Source: a virus
DNA: 6,155 nucleotides
IMG/VR virus record: IMGVR_UViG_3300000330_000030
Span: 1 to 6,155 of that record
Reading direction: 5' to 3' (one strand)
Both the position numbers and the translations under genes were made by a program. Under the pieces are notes generated by a model. It saw only the letters and a program-made list of their open reading frames with translations. It searched no databases and was not told the DNA's origin. This document shows positions 218 through 6,155 of the stretch, in pieces (the first letter of the stretch is position 1; every line of letters begins with the position of its first letter).

Positions 218-1936
218 TTAATAAGGTAAACCATTTCTATCCAAATTCTGCACAGCATAAACTTGGAAATTAACATTACATAATAACTGGTCGTATGCAA
301 CAGAACAGTTCTGGCCTGAAACCTGAGGCTCAAAGATAGAGTTCAATTGCTGAGGACGAACCTTCATAGACTGATAAGACCAAGTACCAGAAGAGGTGAG
401 AATATCCCAACCATCAATAGGGGCAGACCAAGACTGGTAAGCCATGCCAGAGCGGAATGCAGCGTGAACAGTATCAATGTTAGATTTCCATTGCCAATAC
501 CGAAGGTTATAACCAAGAGAACCAGAAACGGTACGAGACGGGTTATTCTGTAAATTCAAAGCAGGGACAGGCTGCATACCTAACTGATCGAACGCAGGTT
601 GGGGGAAGTCGGTAATAGCCGTAACAGTCAACTGAGGGTTCTGACCTGTCAGATTCCAGTCAACCATAGGAACAGCATGATATACACACATAATTACCTG
701 ATGTTCGGCACCGCAGTCATAAGTCAGCGTATGGCCAGAAGCTGAACCTACACCTTTACCAGCGATTACGGCTTGAGAGTTATCAGCCTCTAAATTAGTA
801 TTCAGGACTTCGTTAATATTGATCACATTTGACCAACCTCCGATATAATGTGCATGATTGCCCATATATTCAGGAGCCTTAATACCGAATTGAGCAACCA
901 TCTGATCTGAATAGTCCTTGCTAGAGAATTGCACTACTTCTTTCCAACGCTGTAAGTATTCAGTTGCGCGGATTGAAAGAGCAGATAAATCTGAATTCAA
1001 AACAACATTACGAGGACTAGCAATACTAGAAACAGTCACATTAGAAGAACCATCGGCAACACGAAGGGGAGAAGACAAAGGAAGAGTAACAATACGATTA
1101 GAAGCAGCTCCACCCATGTCATAAGACGAAGGCAAAACAGCTACCGAACCATACTGAGAATTAGGAAGCATACCCATGAAATAGTCCTTCGGATAATTGG
1201 CATAACGGAGCTGGAGCATCTCAGGGGCAAGATTCAATTGCGATTTACCGTCCCAATAATCAACATTGTAAGCATAAGCCAGGTGCTTTTCCCATTGAGA
1301 TTCAGAGAAGAAGTCATAGTAGATCTTCTGATAAGCCAACAACGGAAGAAGATTGACAGTCTGGCTAGCACTATAAACCAAAGGATTATCAGCATCGGCA
1401 GTTTTATCTAGACCTAAATAGGCTTTGGTAATAAGATCTTTAGCGTCATTTGTGGAAGAGAGGAAAGAACCATATCCAAGCATATCCAATACCTTAGAAG
1501 CGCCATAAACATATGGCAAGCCAGCATCATCGAGGGTATCCTGAGTAACAATCGTCCGAAGACTCAATGACAACAAACTCAACGTTGTATTCGGTACAGA
1601 AGTCAACATCTCGGTGTTAGCAGTATTACTAGCAGCAGACGTCATATAATCCGTCATCTGAGTAAACGCCTGCGGAAGAGCACGAGAAATCAAGCGTAAC
1701 GGCACAGCGTAAAAGTCATAATACTCCTTAATACGGGTATATGCAGCCGTATTAACGGGAACAGTACGAGTAAACCAATCGGAAGAGATACGATACTTGT
1801 TGCCAGGAATAGCTATCTGCCAATAACAAGGAAGGATCTCTCCAACTTTTGCCGTAAATAACTTTTTGCTAGATAAGTCAAAGGAAGAGCGATGGACAGC
1901 AACTTTCGCTCGGTCTAGCGGATTAAAATCACTCAT
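218..1936 (-). CDS. VP1: Microviridae major capsid protein (VP1 / F-like)
   Basis: 572-aa ATG-initiated ORF. The N-terminus ...VHRSSFDLSSKKLFTAKVGEILPCYWQIAIPGNKYRISSDWFTRTVPVNTAAYTRIKEYYDFYAVPLRLI carries the conserved microvirus capsid signature (RSxFDLS ... GxLxP ... PG ... F/YxVPxR). Size is typical, and third-position T bias is strong in this frame. Confidence 0.95.
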   Translation of the reverse strand: MSDFNPLDRAKVAVHRSSFDLSSKKLFTAKVGEILPCYWQIAIPGNKYRISSDWFTRTVPVNTAAYTRIKEYYDFYAVPLRLISRALPQAFTQMTDYMTSAASNTANTEMLTSVPNTTLSLLSLSLRTIVTQDTLDDAGLPYVYGASKVLDMLGYGSFLSSTNDAKDLITKAYLGLDKTADADNPLVYSASQTVNLLPLLAYQKIYYDFFSESQWEKHLAYAYNVDYWDGKSQLNLAPEMLQLRYANYPKDYFMGMLPNSQYGSVAVLPSSYDMGGAASNRIVTLPLSSPLRVADGSSNVTVSSIASPRNVVLNSDLSALSIRATEYLQRWKEVVQFSSKDYSDQMVAQFGIKAPEYMGNHAHYIGGWSNVININEVLNTNLEADNSQAVIAGKGVGSASGHTLTYDCGAEHQVIMCVYHAVPMVDWNLTGQNPQLTVTAITDFPQPAFDQLGMQPVPALNLQNNPSRTVSGSLGYNLRYWQWKSNIDTVHAAFRSGMAYQSWSAPIDGWDILTSSGTWSYQSMKVRPQQLNSIFEPQVSGQNCSVAYDQLLCNVNFQVYAVQNLDRNGLPY

Positions 1937-1952
1937 AATTAATTAATTTAAA

Positions 1953-3767
1953 TTAGACCATACGGTTAAATATATCATTTGCATCATTCAATTTTTTATG
2001 CTTAATCATATTCCGACAGACGGTAGAAGCACGGAAATAAAGACATTTTTGTAAGTCGTCGAGCGACCCATTATCAAAGGCACTTCTTGTATCGGGTTTC
2101 GCAGATTTGAAGTAATTACAAGTCGCGAGAGATGGGATTCTGGGGTCATCAAACGGTACTCGTATTTGTTCTTTAATAGGACGAATAAATCCGTCTGCAT
2201 ATTCTCCGTCTTCACCGATACCAATGGTCGCCATCTCGCATCCTTCGGCTGGTACATAGAAATACCGAAACATAGGGGCAGGCAAAGTCTGTTGTATTCG
2301 CAACGAATCACACATTCGTACATAGTCCGCTTTCTTTTCATACTCTATGCCTTTTTTAATGATATAATTAATACGGGAGGTATAAATATACAAATCGTCG
2401 CCAATGCCAGGGAGATTCCAATTGCGGAGGAACTTAGAGACATAAAGGAATAGCCGATATAACTTATTAATAAAATATTCAACATCGACATCGCTAGAAC
2501 TGTTAACGAACCTAGTAAGGCACCTAGCATTATGTAGTACAATCTTATCATCATCAGTCAATATATGATTTAAAGTTATATATTTATAATAAGCACGCAC
2601 TATAGATAGAATAGAATTACTATCATAATCTACAATGCCGAAACGTGCGATTCTTTTTGGCGCTGATGCAACTGAGCAAATAACTCTATATATCGCAACA
2701 GCATCATCATAGCGAGCTCCTGAGAATCTGGGGAATAAGGAACGGATATACGATATGGGGGGAGTTGACTTGACAACGATTCCATTAAAATTATACTCTC
2801 GTCCATTAATGACCGAATCGATTTTTTGCTCAATTTGCGCATAGACATCTTCACCTTCATCAAATGTTTCACCTTTTTCAAAGAATCCGAGAGACGCTCT
2901 TGAGCGGGGTTTAAACGCACGGCATGAGCGATAAAGAGAGGGAGCAGAAGCCAAGCTGTTAACGTAACTCGCAACGTATGAAGCGCATCCACCGTTGGAA
3001 CGTTGGATATCTGAACGACCGAACTTCCAACTTTTATTATGACACTCTCGAAGGACATCGGCGATTTCCTGCGAGTTGAAGAATAGTAACAAATGGAAAT
3101 GTGGGCGGAAATGGACTGGGCCATACTCGCCAACAGCGTAAAATGATATCTTTTCATTAGTGTATTTATCTAAATGTCTACGTAAACGTTTAATATAATT
3201 CTGAACATCAACATAGTTCAGATAAGGGATAAGATTATTACCGTATCTACAGGAAAGTTCTCCATCTTTACCGTAAGGTGTAGCGGATTGCGTCTTATCA
3301 ATAAAGGAACGGATAGCATCCATAGAAAGAAACCAATTATCTTTAATCGGCTCATACTGACCTGATTCACGGTTATATGGAACTGTACCCTGTACCTGTG
3401 TAAAGTATATATGGCGCAATTGTTGTGAGTCTGTACAACAATATTTGGATATCGGAACAAACGAATGTTTTTCATAACCATAAACAACACCAGAATCGCT
3501 TAAAACATCATCATATTCAGAATAATATACCTCACAATTAAATAGAGGAATGTGTTCATTATCGTAGGTGAGCGTAACAAACCAACAATGCTTAAAGGCA
3601 CTTCCAGCGGTCTTCACACGCATGGACGCCTTTTGAGCTCGCTTGTGTATACAATAATCGCATTGACCGCAATCTATAGCGATACGCTTACCTGTATATC
3701 TGTTAGTAACGAACGAACGATGTTGACAATGGTCAGCAGCTTTAAGCAACTCTGGTGTATATTTCAT
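1953..3767 (-). CDS. VP4: Replication initiation protein (VP4 / A-like HUH rolling-circle endonuclease) with a long C-terminal extension
   Basis: 604-aa ORF. It has an N-terminal Cys cluster, CGQCDYCIHKR. RCR motif I is FVTLTY (3564-3581). The HUH motif is RPHFHLLLFF (HFHLLL at 3084-3101). The two-tyrosine motif is YVASYVNS (2955-2978), comparable to the YxxxY catalytic motif of phiX174 protein A. I verified each by back-translation. Its ATG overlaps the peptidase stop (ATGA at 3764-3767). Confidence 0.92.
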   Translation of the reverse strand: MKYTPELLKAADHCQHRSFVTNRYTGKRIAIDCGQCDYCIHKRAQKASMRVKTAGSAFKHCWFVTLTYDNEHIPLFNCEVYYSEYDDVLSDSGVVYGYEKHSFVPISKYCCTDSQQLRHIYFTQVQGTVPYNRESGQYEPIKDNWFLSMDAIRSFIDKTQSATPYGKDGELSCRYGNNLIPYLNYVDVQNYIKRLRRHLDKYTNEKISFYAVGEYGPVHFRPHFHLLLFFNSQEIADVLRECHNKSWKFGRSDIQRSNGGCASYVASYVNSLASAPSLYRSCRAFKPRSRASLGFFEKGETFDEGEDVYAQIEQKIDSVINGREYNFNGIVVKSTPPISYIRSLFPRFSGARYDDAVAIYRVICSVASAPKRIARFGIVDYDSNSILSIVRAYYKYITLNHILTDDDKIVLHNARCLTRFVNSSSDVDVEYFINKLYRLFLYVSKFLRNWNLPGIGDDLYIYTSRINYIIKKGIEYEKKADYVRMCDSLRIQQTLPAPMFRYFYVPAEGCEMATIGIGEDGEYADGFIRPIKEQIRVPFDDPRIPSLATCNYFKSAKPDTRSAFDNGSLDDLQKCLYFRASTVCRNMIKHKKLNDANDIFNRMV

Positions 3768-4060
3768 ACTCTTTTATCAATTAATTGATGACGATTTCTT
3801 GAACTAAAGGATATATGCATGAATCCATCATAAAGAATAAACTGGTCAAATGCAACATTATCCATAATATAAGTTACCAACTGGCTATAAGTTGTAGAAC
3901 CATAAGGCTTGAAGTCAATAGCTTCGCCTTTAAGATGCTGAGAATTAGGAGCTCCTCCAGCAGTTCTATTCTGAAAAACAGTCCGAAGCGCGCTCGTTAT
4001 TGTAAAATGGAAGTTAAGCTGTAGCAAATCATCCAAAAAAGACATAAGGGCAGGATTCAT
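3764..4060 (-). CDS. Zinc D-Ala-D-Ala carboxypeptidase-like peptidase (Peptidase_M15 / LAS-type cell-wall hydrolase); candidate endolysin or entry enzyme
   Basis: 98-aa ORF. SALRTVFQNRTAGGAPNSQHLKGEAIDFKP ... GFMHISF matches the M15 signature SxxR...N...GG...SxHxxGxAxD ... H. The predicted zinc ligands are H42 (3935-3937), D49 (3914-3916) and H82 (3815-3817), giving H-x6-D...H. There are ATGA overlaps at both ends (4057-4060 and 3764-3767). Confidence 0.85.
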   Translation of the reverse strand: MNPALMSFLDDLLQLNFHFTITSALRTVFQNRTAGGAPNSQHLKGEAIDFKPYGSTTYSQLVTYIMDNVAFDQFILYDGFMHISFSSRNRHQLIDKRV

Positions 4061-4143
4061 AGACCTATAGCATTAAGTATATAACCAAGAGCTGCACTAA
4101 CAGCTCCAATAATAATCTTCCAAATATTATTTTTAGTTGCCAT
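4057..4143 (-). CDS. 28-aa single-pass membrane peptide (MATKNNIWKIIIGAVSAALGYILNAIGL), translationally coupled to the peptidase; holin/spanin-like candidate
   Basis: ATG at 4143..4141, and the TGA stop overlaps the peptidase ATG (ATGA). It has a 22-residue hydrophobic stretch after a short polar N-terminus. 18 of 28 third codon positions are T (64%), matching the coding bias of this genome. This indicates the frame is the translated one in this segment. Confidence 0.55.
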   Translation of the reverse strand: MATKNNIWKIIIGAVSAALGYILNAIGL

Positions 4144-4330
4144 TTTGAGTTGTTTTAACAGGTTCGACGAATTGATTCTCTTCTTTAATAGAATCCACAA
4201 TAACAACAAGACCCAACGGAGAAATTCGCTCAGAATAATTTCCAAGGCCATCCAAAGAATTGACAATATAAGGCGCAATAACATCACGACCTGAATTTTT
4301 CTCCTTAATTGAAATAATAAATTTTTGCAT
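4133..4330 (-). CDS. Hypothetical 65-aa protein, first gene after the non-coding region
   Basis: ATG-initiated ORF MQKFIISIKEKNSGRDVIAPYIVNSLDGLGNYSERISPLGLVVIVDSIKEENQFVEPVKTTQNGN. 35 of 65 third positions are T (54%). The overlapping 93-aa frame scores about 19% T over the same stretch, so this is the primary coding frame. I recognise no motif. Confidence 0.7.
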   Translation of the reverse strand: MQKFIISIKEKNSGRDVIAPYIVNSLDGLGNYSERISPLGLVVIVDSIKEENQFVEPVKTTQNGN

Positions 4331-4477
4331 AATTCCAAATTTTAAACGTTAATAATACTGAGTTAGCTTCTACAGGGGACAAAGAAAAACATTATTTTTT
4401 ATATATGCAAAATTCTACGGATATTTTTTTAGGCATGGCCTTGTGTGAGTTCAACGTTTATAGACAAGGAAAGAGAG

Positions 4478-4500
4478 AAACTGAGAGGGTAACTCAGTTT
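4478..4500. other. Perfect 8-bp stem with 7-nt loop hairpin (AAACTGAG-AGGGTAA-CTCAGTTT)
   Basis: Seen directly: 4478-4485 is the exact reverse complement of 4493-4500. It is nested inside a 7-bp outer pairing, AGTTCAA (4448-4454) with TTGAACT (4511-4517). It is immediately followed by the mini-palindrome TGCGTTCGCA (4501-4510). Confidence 0.7.
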
Positions 4501-4521
4501 TGCGTTCGCATTGAACTAGGG

Positions 4522-4639
4522 GCTTCGCATGATTAAAAGTGGATGTAAACAAAGTGTATAGGCACGACAAGCCAATTAGTCTTGTCTTTGCGCACCGACG
4601 TGCTAAAGTACCGCTTCGCTTTAAGGTAGGTCGCTTCGC
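4522..4639 (-). repeat. Three copies of the heptamer GCGAAGC on the coding/packaged-sense strand (plus-strand GCTTCGC at 4522-4528, 4613-4619, 4633-4639)
   Basis: Exact matches read from the sequence. The last two sit in a repeated 9-mer, CGCTTCGCT (4612-4620 and 4632-4640), 20 nt apart. d(GCGAAGC) is known as an unusually stable DNA mini-hairpin. Confidence 0.85.
4541..4576. repeat. Bipartite direct repeat, copy 1 (GGATGTAAACAA - 10 nt - CACGACAAGCCAAT)
   Basis: The 12-mer at 4541-4552 is identical to 4716-4727. The second module at 4563-4576 matches 4743-4757 apart from one extra G in copy 2, and they share the exact 9-mer CAAGCCAAT. GACAAG (4566-4571) also pairs with CTTGTC (4581-4586) to form a 6-bp hairpin. 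Confidence 0.8.
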
Positions 4640-4715
4640 TCCATTTTTCGACCAGGCCCTACGCGGGCAGCGGGTGTATATCGCTCAAGCGCCGCGATGG
4701 GCTTTTAGTCCTGAA

Positions 4716-4757
4716 GGATGTAAACAAGAAAGGCCTACTCATCACGAGCAAGCCAAT
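4716..4757. repeat. Bipartite direct repeat, copy 2 (GGATGTAAACAA - 15 nt - CACGAGCAAGCCAAT)
   Basis: See copy 1. The 12-mers are exactly 175 nt apart, and together the two copies bracket the G+C-rich core. Confidence 0.8.
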
Positions 4758-4806: not shown

Positions 4807-5865
4807 CTATTCAAATGTACCAATAAAATTGCCAGCACCAGAGGCTATAGAACTAAGGCCACGAGAAGCAGATTCCCAATAATGGGTACGACCTTTTTTC
4901 CGAGACAAGTCTGCACCATATTCATATAGCCTTTGCTTAGCCTTATCGGTATCATACTGAATATGCTTACGTAATTTAACATTAGCAGAATCATAAGATG
5001 CATCACGATACTGCAACTGATAAGCAGCATTCGAAGCCTTAATCAAAGATTCAGCAGTGCTTGAAGCAATATCATTAGATATCTTTTGACCAGAAGCCTG
5101 AGCAGCCGTTAATATAGCACGTTGGAGTTCAGTCTGAATCTGCTTTTCCGTAAGAGCACCATTTAACTGAAGATTAGCCAAAGTCTGACCTTTAATAAAT
5201 AAGTCGGCTTGTTGTTGTTCATCAAGATAACGGTTTAAAATACGTTGAGCATCAGAGTTCAAAAGAATCTGAGTTTCTTGAGCAGCAGACAATCGTTCAG
5301 CGAACTGAAGATTCTTTAATTCCTGAGCCTCTGTAGATTGGTCTAAGGAGGCAGAGATACGACCAGTTTCCTTATTCCAATAGCCAGACTGACCAACAGC
5401 CAGATTTTTCCAATTAGTCAAACCTTTATAATAATCAGCAATTTGAGGAGTAATAGAATCAATATAATTAGATTCTGACTGAGCCTTTTTCGCTTGGGCA
5501 AGAGAAGCTAAAGAATTAAAGACATTGGAAAAATTGGGCTTAAAAGCCTGCATAGACGGAACAGGAGCGGCAGTAGCAGCAGCACCACCAGAGGCAGGAG
5601 CTTTAGAACCAGCCATAGCGGCAGAACCTTGAATAAACGGATTCAAACCACGAGCAATCATAGCATTCGGAGAATTGTAAGCATTATTCATACCCCACAT
5701 TCTCTCTTGCCAATCACGCTGAAGCTGAGATTGCTCGGCATTGAACGCGTTTTGTTCTCGCATCACACGGAGGTTAACCTTATTCTGATGATTTTGGTTA
5801 ACCATGCCTACCACATTGTCGGTAAGATTACCGACAGTGGAAGCAATCGCATCGAAGAGACCCAT
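4807..5865 (-). CDS. VP2: Minor capsid / DNA pilot protein (VP2, H-like)
   Basis: 352-aa ORF whose ATG overlaps the upstream stop (TAATG at 5863-5867). The N-terminal LQRDWQERMWGMNNAYNSPNAMIARGLNPF resembles the ...ERM..N.A.....M...GLNP signature I associate with gokusho/alpavirus VP2. It is followed by an Ala/Gly/Pro linker (GGAAATAAPVP) and a long Q/L/A-rich helical-looking region, as in H-type pilot proteins. Size and synteny fit. Confidence 0.75.
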   Translation of the reverse strand: MGLFDAIASTVGNLTDNVVGMVNQNHQNKVNLRVMREQNAFNAEQSQLQRDWQERMWGMNNAYNSPNAMIARGLNPFIQGSAAMAGSKAPASGGAAATAAPVPSMQAFKPNFSNVFNSLASLAQAKKAQSESNYIDSITPQIADYYKGLTNWKNLAVGQSGYWNKETGRISASLDQSTEAQELKNLQFAERLSAAQETQILLNSDAQRILNRYLDEQQQADLFIKGQTLANLQLNGALTEKQIQTELQRAILTAAQASGQKISNDIASSTAESLIKASNAAYQLQYRDASYDSANVKLRKHIQYDTDKAKQRLYEYGADLSRKKGRTHYWESASRGLSSIASGAGNFIGTFE

Positions 5866-6155
5866 TAAACGTTAGGTGCAGGGGCGGACGCATCAGGAGC
5901 GGGCGCTGCACTTTGCTCTGCCAACACAGACTTAGCGAACTCAGTCAATTCCGAATGTTGAGAAGCCAATTCAGATAATACAGCCTGACGTTCAGACATT
6001 GTTTGACAATGACGGGAAATAACAGCATTAAAACGCTCTTCATCCGTCATACCATCCATCACAGTAGACTGCGTAGGATGCATCTGAGCCAATATATTAT
6101 TAACATTCATATCACCAAGCAAGCGACGATATTTTTCCTGATTCAAGAGAATCTG
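5865..6155 (-). CDS. C-terminal part of the junction-spanning 147-aa protein (same gene as 1..207). The ORF-track TTG start at 6146 is an edge artefact.
   Basis: The frame is open to the window edge (…QILLNQEKYRRLL…). 6102-6155 duplicates 1-54, so the ORF continues upstream to ATG 207..205. The C-terminus is helical-looking and ends in an Ala/Pro tail (AAPAPDASAPAPNV). The stop overlaps the VP2 ATG. Confidence 0.8.
   Translation of the reverse strand, partial: QILLNQEKYRRLLGDMNVNNILAQMHPTQSTVMDGMTDEERFNAVISRHCQTMSERQAVLSELASQHSELTEFAKSVLAEQSAAPAPDASAPAPNV
6102..6155. repeat. Terminal direct repeat, copy 2 (identical to 1-54)
   Basis: Exact 54/54 identity with the window start. Confidence 0.95.

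Follow-up and report, generated by a model that had tools for sequence, protein, structure and literature searches.

A 28-residue membrane peptide and a trimmed M15 peptidase form a candidate lysis module in a gut microvirus

In a 6,155-nt stretch of viral DNA (hereafter the window), whose source is a gut microvirus, an ssDNA phage of about 6.1 kb, we found a 28-aa membrane peptide gene coupled to a 98-aa zinc peptidase gene, and we put at roughly 55% the probability that the two form a miniaturised lysis module with two components, akin to a holin-endolysin pair. The two ORFs are real, under selection and tightly linked. The features concerned, in transcription order, are as follows.

4133..4330, minus strand: ORF65, a conserved 65-aa protein and the first of an overlapping gene chain (from the ORF and its conservation)
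4057..4284, minus strand: possible 75-aa long form, MLLRLILSILWMALEIILSEFLRWVLLLLWILLKKRINSSNLLKQLK followed by the 28-mer, which overprints ORF65 (from stop depletion and an upstream ATG)
4057..4143, minus strand: membrane peptide ORF, 28 aa, with a single predicted span (from the ORF read and its conservation)
3764..4060, minus strand: M15 (LAS-type) zinc peptidase, 98 aa, N-terminally trimmed and without a signal peptide (PF08291, PHROG 894)

The ends of the window repeat 54 nt, which makes the genome 6101 nt long. Every gene in the ORF list lies on the minus strand. Pfam and PHROG searches found a Phage_F capsid match (E 1e-18) together with a Rep domain and pilot-protein PHROGs, and complete GenBank microvirus genomes aligned with 75-80% nucleotide identity over more than 85% of the window length. 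An Rfam search of the whole window gave no matches, and long alternative-frame ORFs inside Rep (e.g. 2630..3157, 175 aa) were dismissed because their lengths fell within the resampling null. The hosts are probably Bacteroidota. Cellular homologues of the peptidase, at most 51% identical to it, come from mixed taxa, many of them from Bacteroidales. As prophage copies of the peptide motif were found in none of 185,579 species genomes, no direct host assignment was made. The gene chain runs, 5′ to 3′, from ORF65 through the peptide and the peptidase to Rep. Of 119 related contigs, 118 carry ORF65 at about 80% identity, and it is still recognisable in the clade with a second peptide type (type 2) and in the genome mar63; Pfam, PHROG and NCBIfam searches with it returned no match. 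The peptide ATG is located within the 3′ end of ORF65, by 8-10 nt. The initial annotation had described a 28-aa single-span ORF whose stop overlaps the peptidase ATG, and a peptidase stop that overlaps the Rep ATG in turn, and both were confirmed at the base level, with bases 4057-4060 and 3764-3767 each reading tcat on the plus strand, that is, ATGA.

By profile match and predicted fold, the peptidase is a genuine member of the M15 family, with an intact catalytic core and a trimmed N-terminus. It matched Pfam Peptidase_M15_3 (PF08291) at 45.5 bits (E 9.3e-12), well above the gathering cutoff of 23.2, and PHROG 894, 'endolysin', at E 6.6e-18. The motifs S40-Q-H42-L-K-G45-E-A47-I-D49 and F-M-H82-I-S are present in the translation. 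Within and upstream of the SxHxxGxAxD motif, R26, S40, H42, G45, A47 and D49 are invariant in an alignment of 14 diverse sequences reaching down to 42% identity, and in that of 43 close relatives R26, S40, H42, A47 and D49 are again invariant, with G45 at least 90% conserved; D72 and H82 are invariant in both sets. H82 (F-x-H-I/V-S), the candidate third zinc ligand, falls inside a predicted strand (81-84). The AF2 model reached a pLDDT of 87.8, and its best Foldseek matches in the PDB were LAS-type enzymes, with 1lbu at the top (probability 1.00, E 0.012) and VanY and LdcB beside it. Against BFVD, 27 matches were obtained at E <= 1e-3, of which the named ones were nearly all viral M15/M15A peptidases and the top ones viral 'Peptidase M15A' proteins. 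Sequence searches of the PDB gave weak matches (E 0.00092-0.018, 2mxz and 1lbu), and the HMMER alignments place H42 and D49 opposite the motif H and D of both. The M15 assignment that the initial annotation had made for this 98-aa ORF was borne out by the profile search and the structure prediction that it had proposed as checks, and its predicted ligand residues by their conservation.

The same annotation had placed the enzyme at the lower size limit of its family, and this too was correct. The match spans profile positions 42-107 of 108, leaving positions 1-41 (the HF..EF region) unmatched, and homologues in other microviruses, tailed phages or bacteria measure 126-234 aa against 98 aa here, the longer ones having 27-50 additional N-terminal residues. 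Precomputed PF08291 assignments were found on all 120 relatives among the matches listed, with lengths of 94-99 aa, and the translation holds no N-terminal hydrophobic segment. Since the N-terminal ~40 profile positions of the family are missing, murein cutting by the trimmed 98-aa form is putative. The peptidase itself is already known, so that the peptide is the added element here. GenBank relatives (Dulem, bajarodmic, mar, OP549867) carry a 'peptidase' annotation. Roux et al. 2012 (PMC3394797) already proposed an M15_3 peptidase as a microvirus endolysin, and Kirchberger et al. 2022 (PMC9239249) refer to such genes as 'lysis-associated accessory genes'. The initial annotation was right to allow that the peptidase might not be new, given sporadic M15-like ORFs in metagenomic Microviridae surveys.

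The peptide, MATKNNIWKIIIGAVSAALGYILNAIGL, starts at an ATG at 4143 and stops at 4057-4059. It has a polar and basic N-terminus (MATKNN, K9) followed by a predicted span of 19-22 residues that runs up to the C-terminus, with a Kyte-Doolittle 17-residue maximum of 2.06. The summed insertion free energy of the 19 residues I10-L28, computed with approximate scale values, is marginal at about +1.3 kcal/mol. Gly, Ala, Ser and Thr make up 40-50% of the last 20 residues, and K9, G13, S16, A17, G20, N24 and G27 share one helical face. The codon-position entropy of 0.31/0.03/0.91 (type 1, 88 unique sequences) shows a coding-type substitution pattern and argues for strong purifying selection on the peptide as such; type 2 gave 0.05/0.01/0.45. 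The peptide is the best-conserved coding segment of the genome. Its mean identity to the window is 93.8% versus 62-80% for other genes, a figure biased upward because the set was picked by the peptide motif. It comes in three or more sequence types, 27-29 aa long. Pfam, PHROG and NCBIfam searches gave no holin-family match for the peptide (best phrog_1893, E 0.21, and phrog_937, E 0.39), the PHROG search found no similarity to known single-gene lysis protein families, and the peptide, well short of the roughly 60-150 aa of canonical holins, ends with its span, lacking a charged C-terminal tail. Neither the database records of the relatives examined annotate it, nor was a description found in the full-text literature open without subscription. 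Standard gene callers skip the ORF; at 87 nt including the stop, it is below what we take to be the minimum gene length of Prodigal.

Conservation of the 28-aa ORF in relatives, on which the initial annotation had staked its reading, was found: its entropy is of the coding type, as given above, and of the 93 evaluable loci in a set found via the peptidase, 92 have the ORF directly 5′ of the enzyme gene. In a set found via the peptide motif, the peptidase lies 3′ of the peptide in 110 of 119 contigs, and it follows the type 2 peptide in 47 of 47. A third peptide type occupies the same slot in one contig (L089). The proposed coupling of the two partners therefore stands at these counts, and it does not hold for nine genomes without the peptidase or for mar63, which has the peptidase and in which no peptide ORF was found in the usual place or elsewhere. 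In type 2, the peptide is mostly in the peptidase frame, with its stop and one codon between, and spacings of 3, 9, 16, 21, 32 and 56 nt occur in all three frames. MG945328 and MG945336 have a similar ORF of 29-30 aa (A-V/I-C-A-A-L/I-S-Y), which overlaps the peptidase gene at its 3′ end and whose DNA pattern had 0 matches in IMG/VR; these two genomes have only a recombined ~700-nt peptidase region in common (PMC9239249). In cellular and prophage homologues, many from Bacteroidales MAGs, a multi-span holin-like protein of 65-130 aa ends just 5′ of the M15_3 gene.

The nine genomes (L095, L129, L134, L144, L151, L154, L169, L177 and L185) retain the peptide, which indicates that it works without the enzyme. 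All their other genes are present, and no replacement enzyme was found among them. They are diversified, with two pilot gene types that are 52% and 73% identical to that of the window, and a Rep neighbour-joining tree, itself star-like, scatters them. A spacer of about 52 nt, in which no convincing peptidase remnants were detected, is common to the seven that can be aligned, so that, judged from sequence, the peptidase-less junction probably arose once. Because the outgroups carry the peptidase, its loss is more parsimonious than ancestral absence.

In the reading that we favour, ORF65, the peptide, the peptidase and Rep would be translated as an overlapping chain, as their junctions (11 nt shared at the first, ATGA at the other two) suggest. 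The 27-28-aa peptide would enter the inner membrane, its basic N-terminus staying on the cytoplasmic side; its small and polar helical face may permit oligomerisation, and once enough had accumulated the membrane would be breached or de-energised. The signal-less 98-aa M15 zinc peptidase, cytoplasmic until then, would reach the murein and cut peptide stems or cross-links, and the cell would burst. As the most conserved coding segment, and one that survives loss of the enzyme, the peptide would be the core component, and the peptidase consequently an accessory that adds efficiency. How the peptide sits in the membrane, whether it oligomerises and opens holes, which bond is cut and that lysis follows are all inferences. 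For a module count the enzyme assignment, the linkage, the selection on both ORFs, the gene-order analogy with cellular homologues and the prior endolysin proposal. In a canonical holin-endolysin system, loss of the endolysin abolishes lysis, and the nine peptidase-less genomes count against the module. So do mar63, where the enzyme occurs without the peptide, and the single short span, which would have to make holes wide enough for an 11-kDa protein; a near-invariant span is more typical of a binder of a specific partner. Of the resemblance to a minimal holin-endolysin pair that had been suggested at the outset, the gene order, as in the cellular and prophage homologues, was upheld, and the likeness of the peptide to a holin was not, with the missing holin-family match and the missing charged tail counting against it.

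The 28-mer occupies the 3′-terminal part of an open frame of 93 codons (4057..4338) that reaches back to a TTG at 4338, and it is possible, though less likely than not, that the true product in this clade is an overprinted, holin-sized membrane protein of 73-93 aa. Such a protein would begin with a hydrophobic region of ~30 residues, continue in a basic linker and end in the conserved span, its C-terminal TMD; the 28-mer would then be no more than the final third, or a second isoform that starts internally. In this clade, the peptide frame stays open for at least 53 more codons across ORF65, far beyond chance. In the window, 0 stops were observed in this frame over ORF65 versus 4.1 +/- 1.7 expected, a depletion specific to this frame, with five control genes fitting the null, and the frame is stop-free in 81-86% of 85 relatives versus a simulated 0.9% (P 0.009); the relatives are not independent, however, and a column shuffle still leaves 72% of sequences stop-free. 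Synonymous-site variability of ORF65 is lowered, with a third-position entropy of 0.64 versus 0.90 in neighbouring genes, and W24, L26, L29 and W30 of the long form are invariant in 52 sequences. An in-frame ATG is found 46-47 codons 5′ of the peptide start in 74 of 87 loci, and some upstream ATG in 86 of the 87; public gene callers already output the long form in 209 clusters, labelled 'hypothetical'. This upstream ATG, on the other hand, falls on the GAT|G of an Asp-Val that is conserved in ORF65; three loci (L032, L040, L055) have a shortened frame with only 10-35 open codons upstream; and in the type 2 clade, where two-thirds of the genomes contain stops (1.05 observed versus 1.65 expected), the long frame is not conserved. 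Moreover, the internal ATG at which the 28-mer starts is conserved although the residues that follow it and the overlapping ORF65 tail vary. AF2 gave a single continuous, featureless helix for the 75-aa form (pTM 0.40), which is uninformative on topology, and the long form, at 73-78 aa, reaches holin size yet also ends with the span. A holin-sized form of 73-78 aa may exist in this clade, in which case the 28-aa peptide may be no more than its C-terminal span, or else a shorter isoform.

It is rather unlikely, in our judgement, that the peptide alone is the lysis effector and the peptidase a later, dispensable add-on, although its persistence, with no other candidate gene, in diversified peptidase-less genomes would fit such autonomy, as would a second-position entropy of 0.03 in the most conserved coding segment. 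Lysis proteins down to 37 aa (LysM) are also documented. The peptide would then bind and block a conserved host enzyme of the inner membrane that supplies murein precursors, or else set off the host's autolysins; among known effectors, phiX174 E acts on MraY and levivirus LysM on MurJ. Against it speaks the tight, repeated pairing with a muralytic enzyme, seen in more than 90% of genomes and in two gene orders; three to four divergent types in one slot fit generic membrane action better, and similarity to the known single-gene lysis families is lacking. A self-sufficient peptide with a conserved inner-membrane target, and a peptidase that was horizontally acquired and is losable, is correspondingly doubtful. 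More unlikely still is a role outside lysis, in which the peptidase would be a virion-associated or entry murein cutter and the peptide would serve an unrelated membrane function such as superinfection exclusion or the anchoring of replication or assembly. Tailed phages do have M15A domains within their tail and baseplate proteins (BFVD matches to Gp5-type and 500-1190-aa proteins), and nine genomes have the peptide without the enzyme; the enzyme, however, is encoded in a non-structural block beside Rep, away from the capsid, scaffold and pilot genes, and the repeated physical coupling of both genes argues for a shared role. The entry enzyme that the initial annotation had offered as its alternative is disfavoured because the enzyme is dispensable where the structural genes are intact. 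We consider it highly improbable that recoding fuses the span to the peptidase, by a -1 frameshift at CTA_TGA or, in type 2, by stop read-through, yielding a SAR-type endolysin that is tethered and then freed on depolarisation. SAR domains are rich in Gly, Ala and Ser and weakly hydrophobic, and the composition and marginal hydrophobicity of the span are of this kind; the usual frame and spacing of type 2, and an N-terminal hydrophobic segment in two cellular homologues (L276, L280), also agree with it. The fusion was rejected, as no slippery heptamer precedes the peptide stop, the spacing and frame of type 2 vary, the peptide persists without a downstream peptidase and lies 3′ of the enzyme in MG945328 and MG945336; nor was a fused homologue seen among the 120 matches listed.

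To our knowledge, lysis by microviruses outside the phiX174 group is largely without an assignment, although gut viromes contain these phages in abundance. Since 2012 the peptidase by itself has been considered for this role, and the favoured two-component module adds the peptide as a second component. The peptide and the minimal 98-aa M15 core may be of interest for lysin and protein-antibiotic work. If the peptide alone lysed cells, it would show how two-gene lysis can arise step by step from one-gene lysis, and, if self-sufficient, it would be smaller than any known phage lysis protein and an intermediate between single-gene and holin-endolysin lysis in ssDNA phages.

The closest known genes are the M15_3 genes of other Microviridae, which belong to the same Pfam family, are gut host-associated, lie beside Rep and have a proposed endolysin role. 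Their products in the other lineages sampled are 126-147 aa long versus 98 aa here, and the accessible text of the two papers (PMC3394797, PMC9239249) describes no transmembrane partner; Kirchberger et al. state there that overprinted genes were left out (PMC9239249). The M15_3 cassettes of tailed phages and prophages (Tannerellaceae, Parabacteroides, Muribaculaceae) have the same order, a membrane protein and then a signal-less peptidase, and the same logic of a cytoplasmic enzyme dependent on a membrane lesion. Their membrane protein, however, has 65-130 aa, at least two spans and charged tails, compared with 27-29 aa, one span and no tail here, with no detectable sequence homology between them, and their enzyme of 130-160 aa retains the HF..EF segment that is missing here. 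In the R...SxHxxGxAxD core, the peptidase resembles the T5 endolysin (an L-alanyl-D-glutamate peptidase, 2mxz) and the zinc DD-peptidase of Streptomyces albus (1lbu), the latter being its best structural match; these enzymes have 137 and 213 aa, the C-terminal half including H82 is unaligned in sequence, and bond specificity is not transferable. Like phage 21 S21-R21 and P1 Lyz, the region combines a weakly hydrophobic Gly/Ala/Ser-rich span, a small membrane protein and a small enzyme; unlike in those pinholin and SAR systems, the span is separate from the enzyme, and, with no signal anchor on the enzyme, a pinhole would not free it. phiX174 E and LysM (37 aa) are likewise tiny membrane proteins of minimal genomes with overlapping or embedded genes, and, as with single-gene lysis proteins, the peptide is kept in genomes without a muralytic enzyme (the nine relatives, the window itself having the peptidase); it differs from them in sequence and, in more than 90% of genomes, in being paired with a murein peptidase.

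All genes of this microvirus genome lie on the minus strand, in the following order.

Features of the genome in minus-strand 5′–3′ order
5865–6146, minus strand: internal scaffolding gene, first, running on across the window ends
4807–5865, minus strand: pilot gene, second, after the scaffolding gene
4133–4330, minus strand: ORF65 (65 aa), third, between pilot gene and peptide
4057–4143, minus strand: peptide ORF (28 aa), fourth, between ORF65 and peptidase
3764–4060, minus strand: peptidase ORF (98 aa), fifth, between peptide and Rep
1953–3767, minus strand: Rep gene, sixth
218–1936, minus strand: capsid gene, last

The plus-strand bases are tcat at both 4057–4060 (peptide/peptidase junction) and 3764–3767 (peptidase/Rep junction), so that on the coding strand each junction is an ATGA overlap. 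The initial annotation had described a 28-aa single-span peptide joined in this way to a compact M15 zinc peptidase, and through it to Rep; translation and the junction bases read from the window confirmed all of its coordinates and features. An exact 54-nt direct repeat was found at the window termini (1–54 = 6102–6155), which is the assembly overlap of a circular contig, and the circular genome is thus 6101 nt. The ORF at 5865–6146 represents the 3′ portion of the internal scaffolding gene; read across the junction and without the duplicate, that gene starts near 207 and encodes ~147 aa.

Among 93 evaluable loci identified through the peptidase (14 GenBank genomes, 78 of 80 fetched IMG/VR contigs and the window), 92 carry a 26–31-aa ORF with a C-terminal hydrophobic span, whose end coincides with the peptidase ATG or lies immediately upstream of it. 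In one relative, L042, the ORF is 37 aa long when counted from its closest in-frame ATG, outside this range, and the GenBank microvirus mar63 is the sole exception, having no such ORF before its peptidase. In 88 loci the peptide is of type 1 (..N-I-W-K-I-[IV]-I-G-A-V-S-A-A-L-G-Y-[IV]-L-N-[AS]-I-G-L), with entropies of 0.31, 0.03 and 0.91 bits at the three codon positions (88 unique DNA sequences), compared with 0.80, 0.50 and 0.90 bits for the first 30 peptidase codons. Such free synonymous variation around an unvarying peptide is the signature of a translated product under strong constraint. Type 2 (MKSETKSKIWSAIIAAAVSLLTSIAQIFS; entropies 0.05, 0.01 and 0.45) was found in 47 further contigs, where the peptidase adjoins it in 47/47, and the relative L089 has a third type in this position. 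The GenBank records of relatives inspected contain no annotation of the peptide, whose ORF, at 87 nt, is probably shorter than the length cutoff that Prodigal normally applies. Judged by its sequence conservation, the peptide ORF is a real gene, tightly coupled to the peptidase gene.

The peptide begins with a polar, basic segment of net charge +2, and its span, I10–L28, is only marginally hydrophobic, with a sum of about +1.3 kcal/mol (approximate Hessa scale values). In a helical-wheel projection, K9, G13, S16, A17, G20, N24 and G27 fall on a single face, with I, L, V and W elsewhere, a pattern that would suit helix–helix packing or channel lining.

The 98-aa protein matched Pfam Peptidase_M15_3 at 45.5 bits (gathering cutoff 23.2) and PHROG 894 'endolysin' with an E value of 6.6e-18. 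Its translation contains the motifs ...TSALR26...S40QH42LKGEAID49...FMH82IS, and R26, N31, G36, S40, Q41, H42, G45, A47, D49, D72, Q73, Y77, F80, H82 and S84 were invariant across 14 sequences with identity down to 42%, among which D78 varied. An AlphaFold2 model built from a 43-sequence input (pLDDT 87.8) had 1lbu (probability 1.00), VanY and LdcB as its top PDB matches, the Streptomyces zinc DD-peptidase 1lbu being the nearest PDB structure to the predicted fold; its best matches among viral models were named 'Peptidase M15A' and included the peptidases of other microviruses. On profile and modelled fold, the ORF is a real M15 family peptidase with a predicted zinc site. It covers only positions 42–107 of the 108 in the Pfam profile, and its homologues in other microvirus lineages (126–147 aa), in a Bacteroides tailed phage (132 aa) and in cells (mostly 130–160 aa) all have an N-terminal extension, so the earlier remark that the enzyme stands at the lower size limit of the family holds. 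No signal peptide was found in the 98-aa protein.

This peptidase is an already known gene. Roux et al. 2012 (PMC3394797) found M15_3 genes in 11 microviruses and argued for their horizontal acquisition and endolysin role, and peptidases are listed among lysis-associated accessory genes by Kirchberger et al. 2022 (PMC9239249). Its counterpart is annotated as 'peptidase' in complete GenBank genomes 75–80% identical to the window, and >200 protein clusters of 94–99 aa, on ~6.1–6.3-kb contigs, match it in public data. In PP511396 (L002), PP511322 (L005) and PP511323 (L006), the GenBank peptidase CDS starts at an upstream in-frame ATG and is 124 aa long, a start that is probably too far upstream, because the added codons overlap the conserved peptide ORF, which is read in a different frame.

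The peptide motif, used as a query against IMG/VR, retrieved 119 contigs, all microvirus-sized, of which 110 have the peptidase downstream of the peptide, while in the remaining nine (L095, L129, L134, L144, L151, L154, L169, L177 and L185; 5.4–6.15 kb) the peptide is followed by Rep ~52 nt on. These nine genomes hold Rep, capsid, pilot, scaffold and ORF65 and no additional gene, tblastn found no peptidase anywhere in them (E ≤ 10), and in most of them the peptide ends in ..GYILSAIGV. The ~52-nt spacer from peptide stop to Rep ATG is homologous among the seven alignable genomes and contains no recognisable enzyme remnant in these. In a poorly resolved Rep tree all nine fall within one peptidase-bearing clade. 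Their pilot genes are of two different types, which indicates a diversified, viable lineage. The peptide thus appears to work without the peptidase.

A further arrangement was found in MG945328 (L224) and MG945336 (L225), microviruses of different families that share only a recombined peptidase region, ~700 nt in length (PMC9239249). In both, the peptidase 3′ end is overlapped by a 29–30-aa hydrophobic ORF (~5404–5493 in MG945328), MTKEQLNKISNALCALISAVCAALSYFFS and MLTKEKLTRISNGICALISAICAAISYFLS, whose core A-[VI]-C-A-A-[LI]-S-Y is similar to the type 1 A-V-S-A-A-L-G-Y. The presence of this small ORF with the recombined region in two families suggests that peptide and peptidase may move together as a cassette. 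No more copies of this peptide were found in IMG/VR with a degenerate DNA pattern.

In the window, the peptide frame runs for 93 codons without a stop and spans all of ORF65. When ORF65 synonymous codons were resampled with the genome's own codon usage, 4.1 ± 1.7 stops were expected in the peptide frame of the window and 0 were observed, and the same resampling reproduced the observed stop counts in capsid, Rep, pilot, peptidase and scaffold genes used as controls. The frame is stop-free in 81–86% of 85 relatives versus a simulated probability of 0.009, these relatives being kin to one another and still 72% stop-free after a codon-column shuffle. At least 53 open codons precede the peptide ATG in 82/85 loci, and only 10–35 in the other three. 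An in-frame ATG 46–47 codons upstream, present in 74/87 loci, arises as a side effect of an Asp-Val pair (GAT|G) conserved in ORF65; from it, a long form of 73–78 aa would open with a hydrophobic stretch of ~30 residues, followed by a basic linker and then the conserved span. Automated gene callers have reported this ORF in 209 clusters, each labelled 'hypothetical' and lacking a Pfam domain, and AlphaFold2 returned an uninformative single helix. Most type 2 genomes have stops in this frame, and the 27–29-aa unit is the part common to all clades. For the window's clade, a long isoform of holin size is plausible, with the odds against it. ORF65 itself (~80% identity) occurs in essentially all relatives, is recognisable also in the type 2 clade and mar63, and matches nothing in Pfam, PHROG or NCBIfam; constraint on its synonymous sites is unusually strong, with a third-position entropy of 0.64 bits versus 0.90 in neighbouring genes.

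A conserved non-coding island of ~290 nt (4441–4730, coding strand minus) is located between ORF65 and the pilot gene; its G+C content reaches 0.52 versus 0.30–0.40 in the flanks, and blastn detected it in 113–118 of 119 relatives. No other nucleotide stretch of the genome is as conserved (mean column entropy 0.28 bits per site), and the island shows no three-base periodicity. RNAalifold on 30 diverse sequences predicted 44 pairs, of which 14 show compensatory double changes and almost none are broken; in the hairpin CTGAGTTACCCTCTCAG (~4484–4500) a CG↔UA change occurs in 15 sequences. The island has no Rfam match and may act either as a complementary-strand origin or as a structured leader for the ORF65–peptide–peptidase–Rep block. 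A 175-aa ATG-initiated ORF (2630–3157, minus strand) was also seen in the Rep +1 frame, with similar 183-aa ORFs in relatives. Nothing indicates that this ORF is a gene, since 14 stops in that frame versus 19.2 ± 3.5 fit the synonymous-resampling null (longest open run 179; simulated mean 121, maximum 310).

The best-supported reading of the region is a miniaturised holin–endolysin-like module, in which the membrane peptide would make a lesion or de-energise the membrane and thereby give the signal-less M15 peptidase access to murein. The leading alternative is a peptide that acts autonomously in single-gene lysis. A classical holin without endolysin kills and does not lyse, and in the nine peptide-only genomes either the peptide brings about release alone or a further, undetected factor exists. 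We infer that, of the two components, the peptide arose earlier or is the more essential one, with the peptidase as an accessory. That dispensability, together with the position of the peptidase gene in a non-structural block, disfavours a virion entry enzyme. Frames and spacings that vary between genomes, the peptide-only genomes and the occurrence of the peptide downstream of the peptidase exclude an enzyme fused to a signal anchor.

Neither the records inspected, in their annotation, nor the openly readable papers that could be searched describe a micro-peptide coupled to the enzyme, the extreme degree to which it is conserved, its enzyme-free persistence or the possible overprinted long form. 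The peptide–peptidase pair makes gut microvirus lysis directly testable, each functional step of the holin–endolysin-like module standing as a prediction. This reading is supported by analogy with cellular M15_3 homologues, in which a 65–130-aa multi-span protein typically ends directly before the peptidase gene, the same order as in the window.
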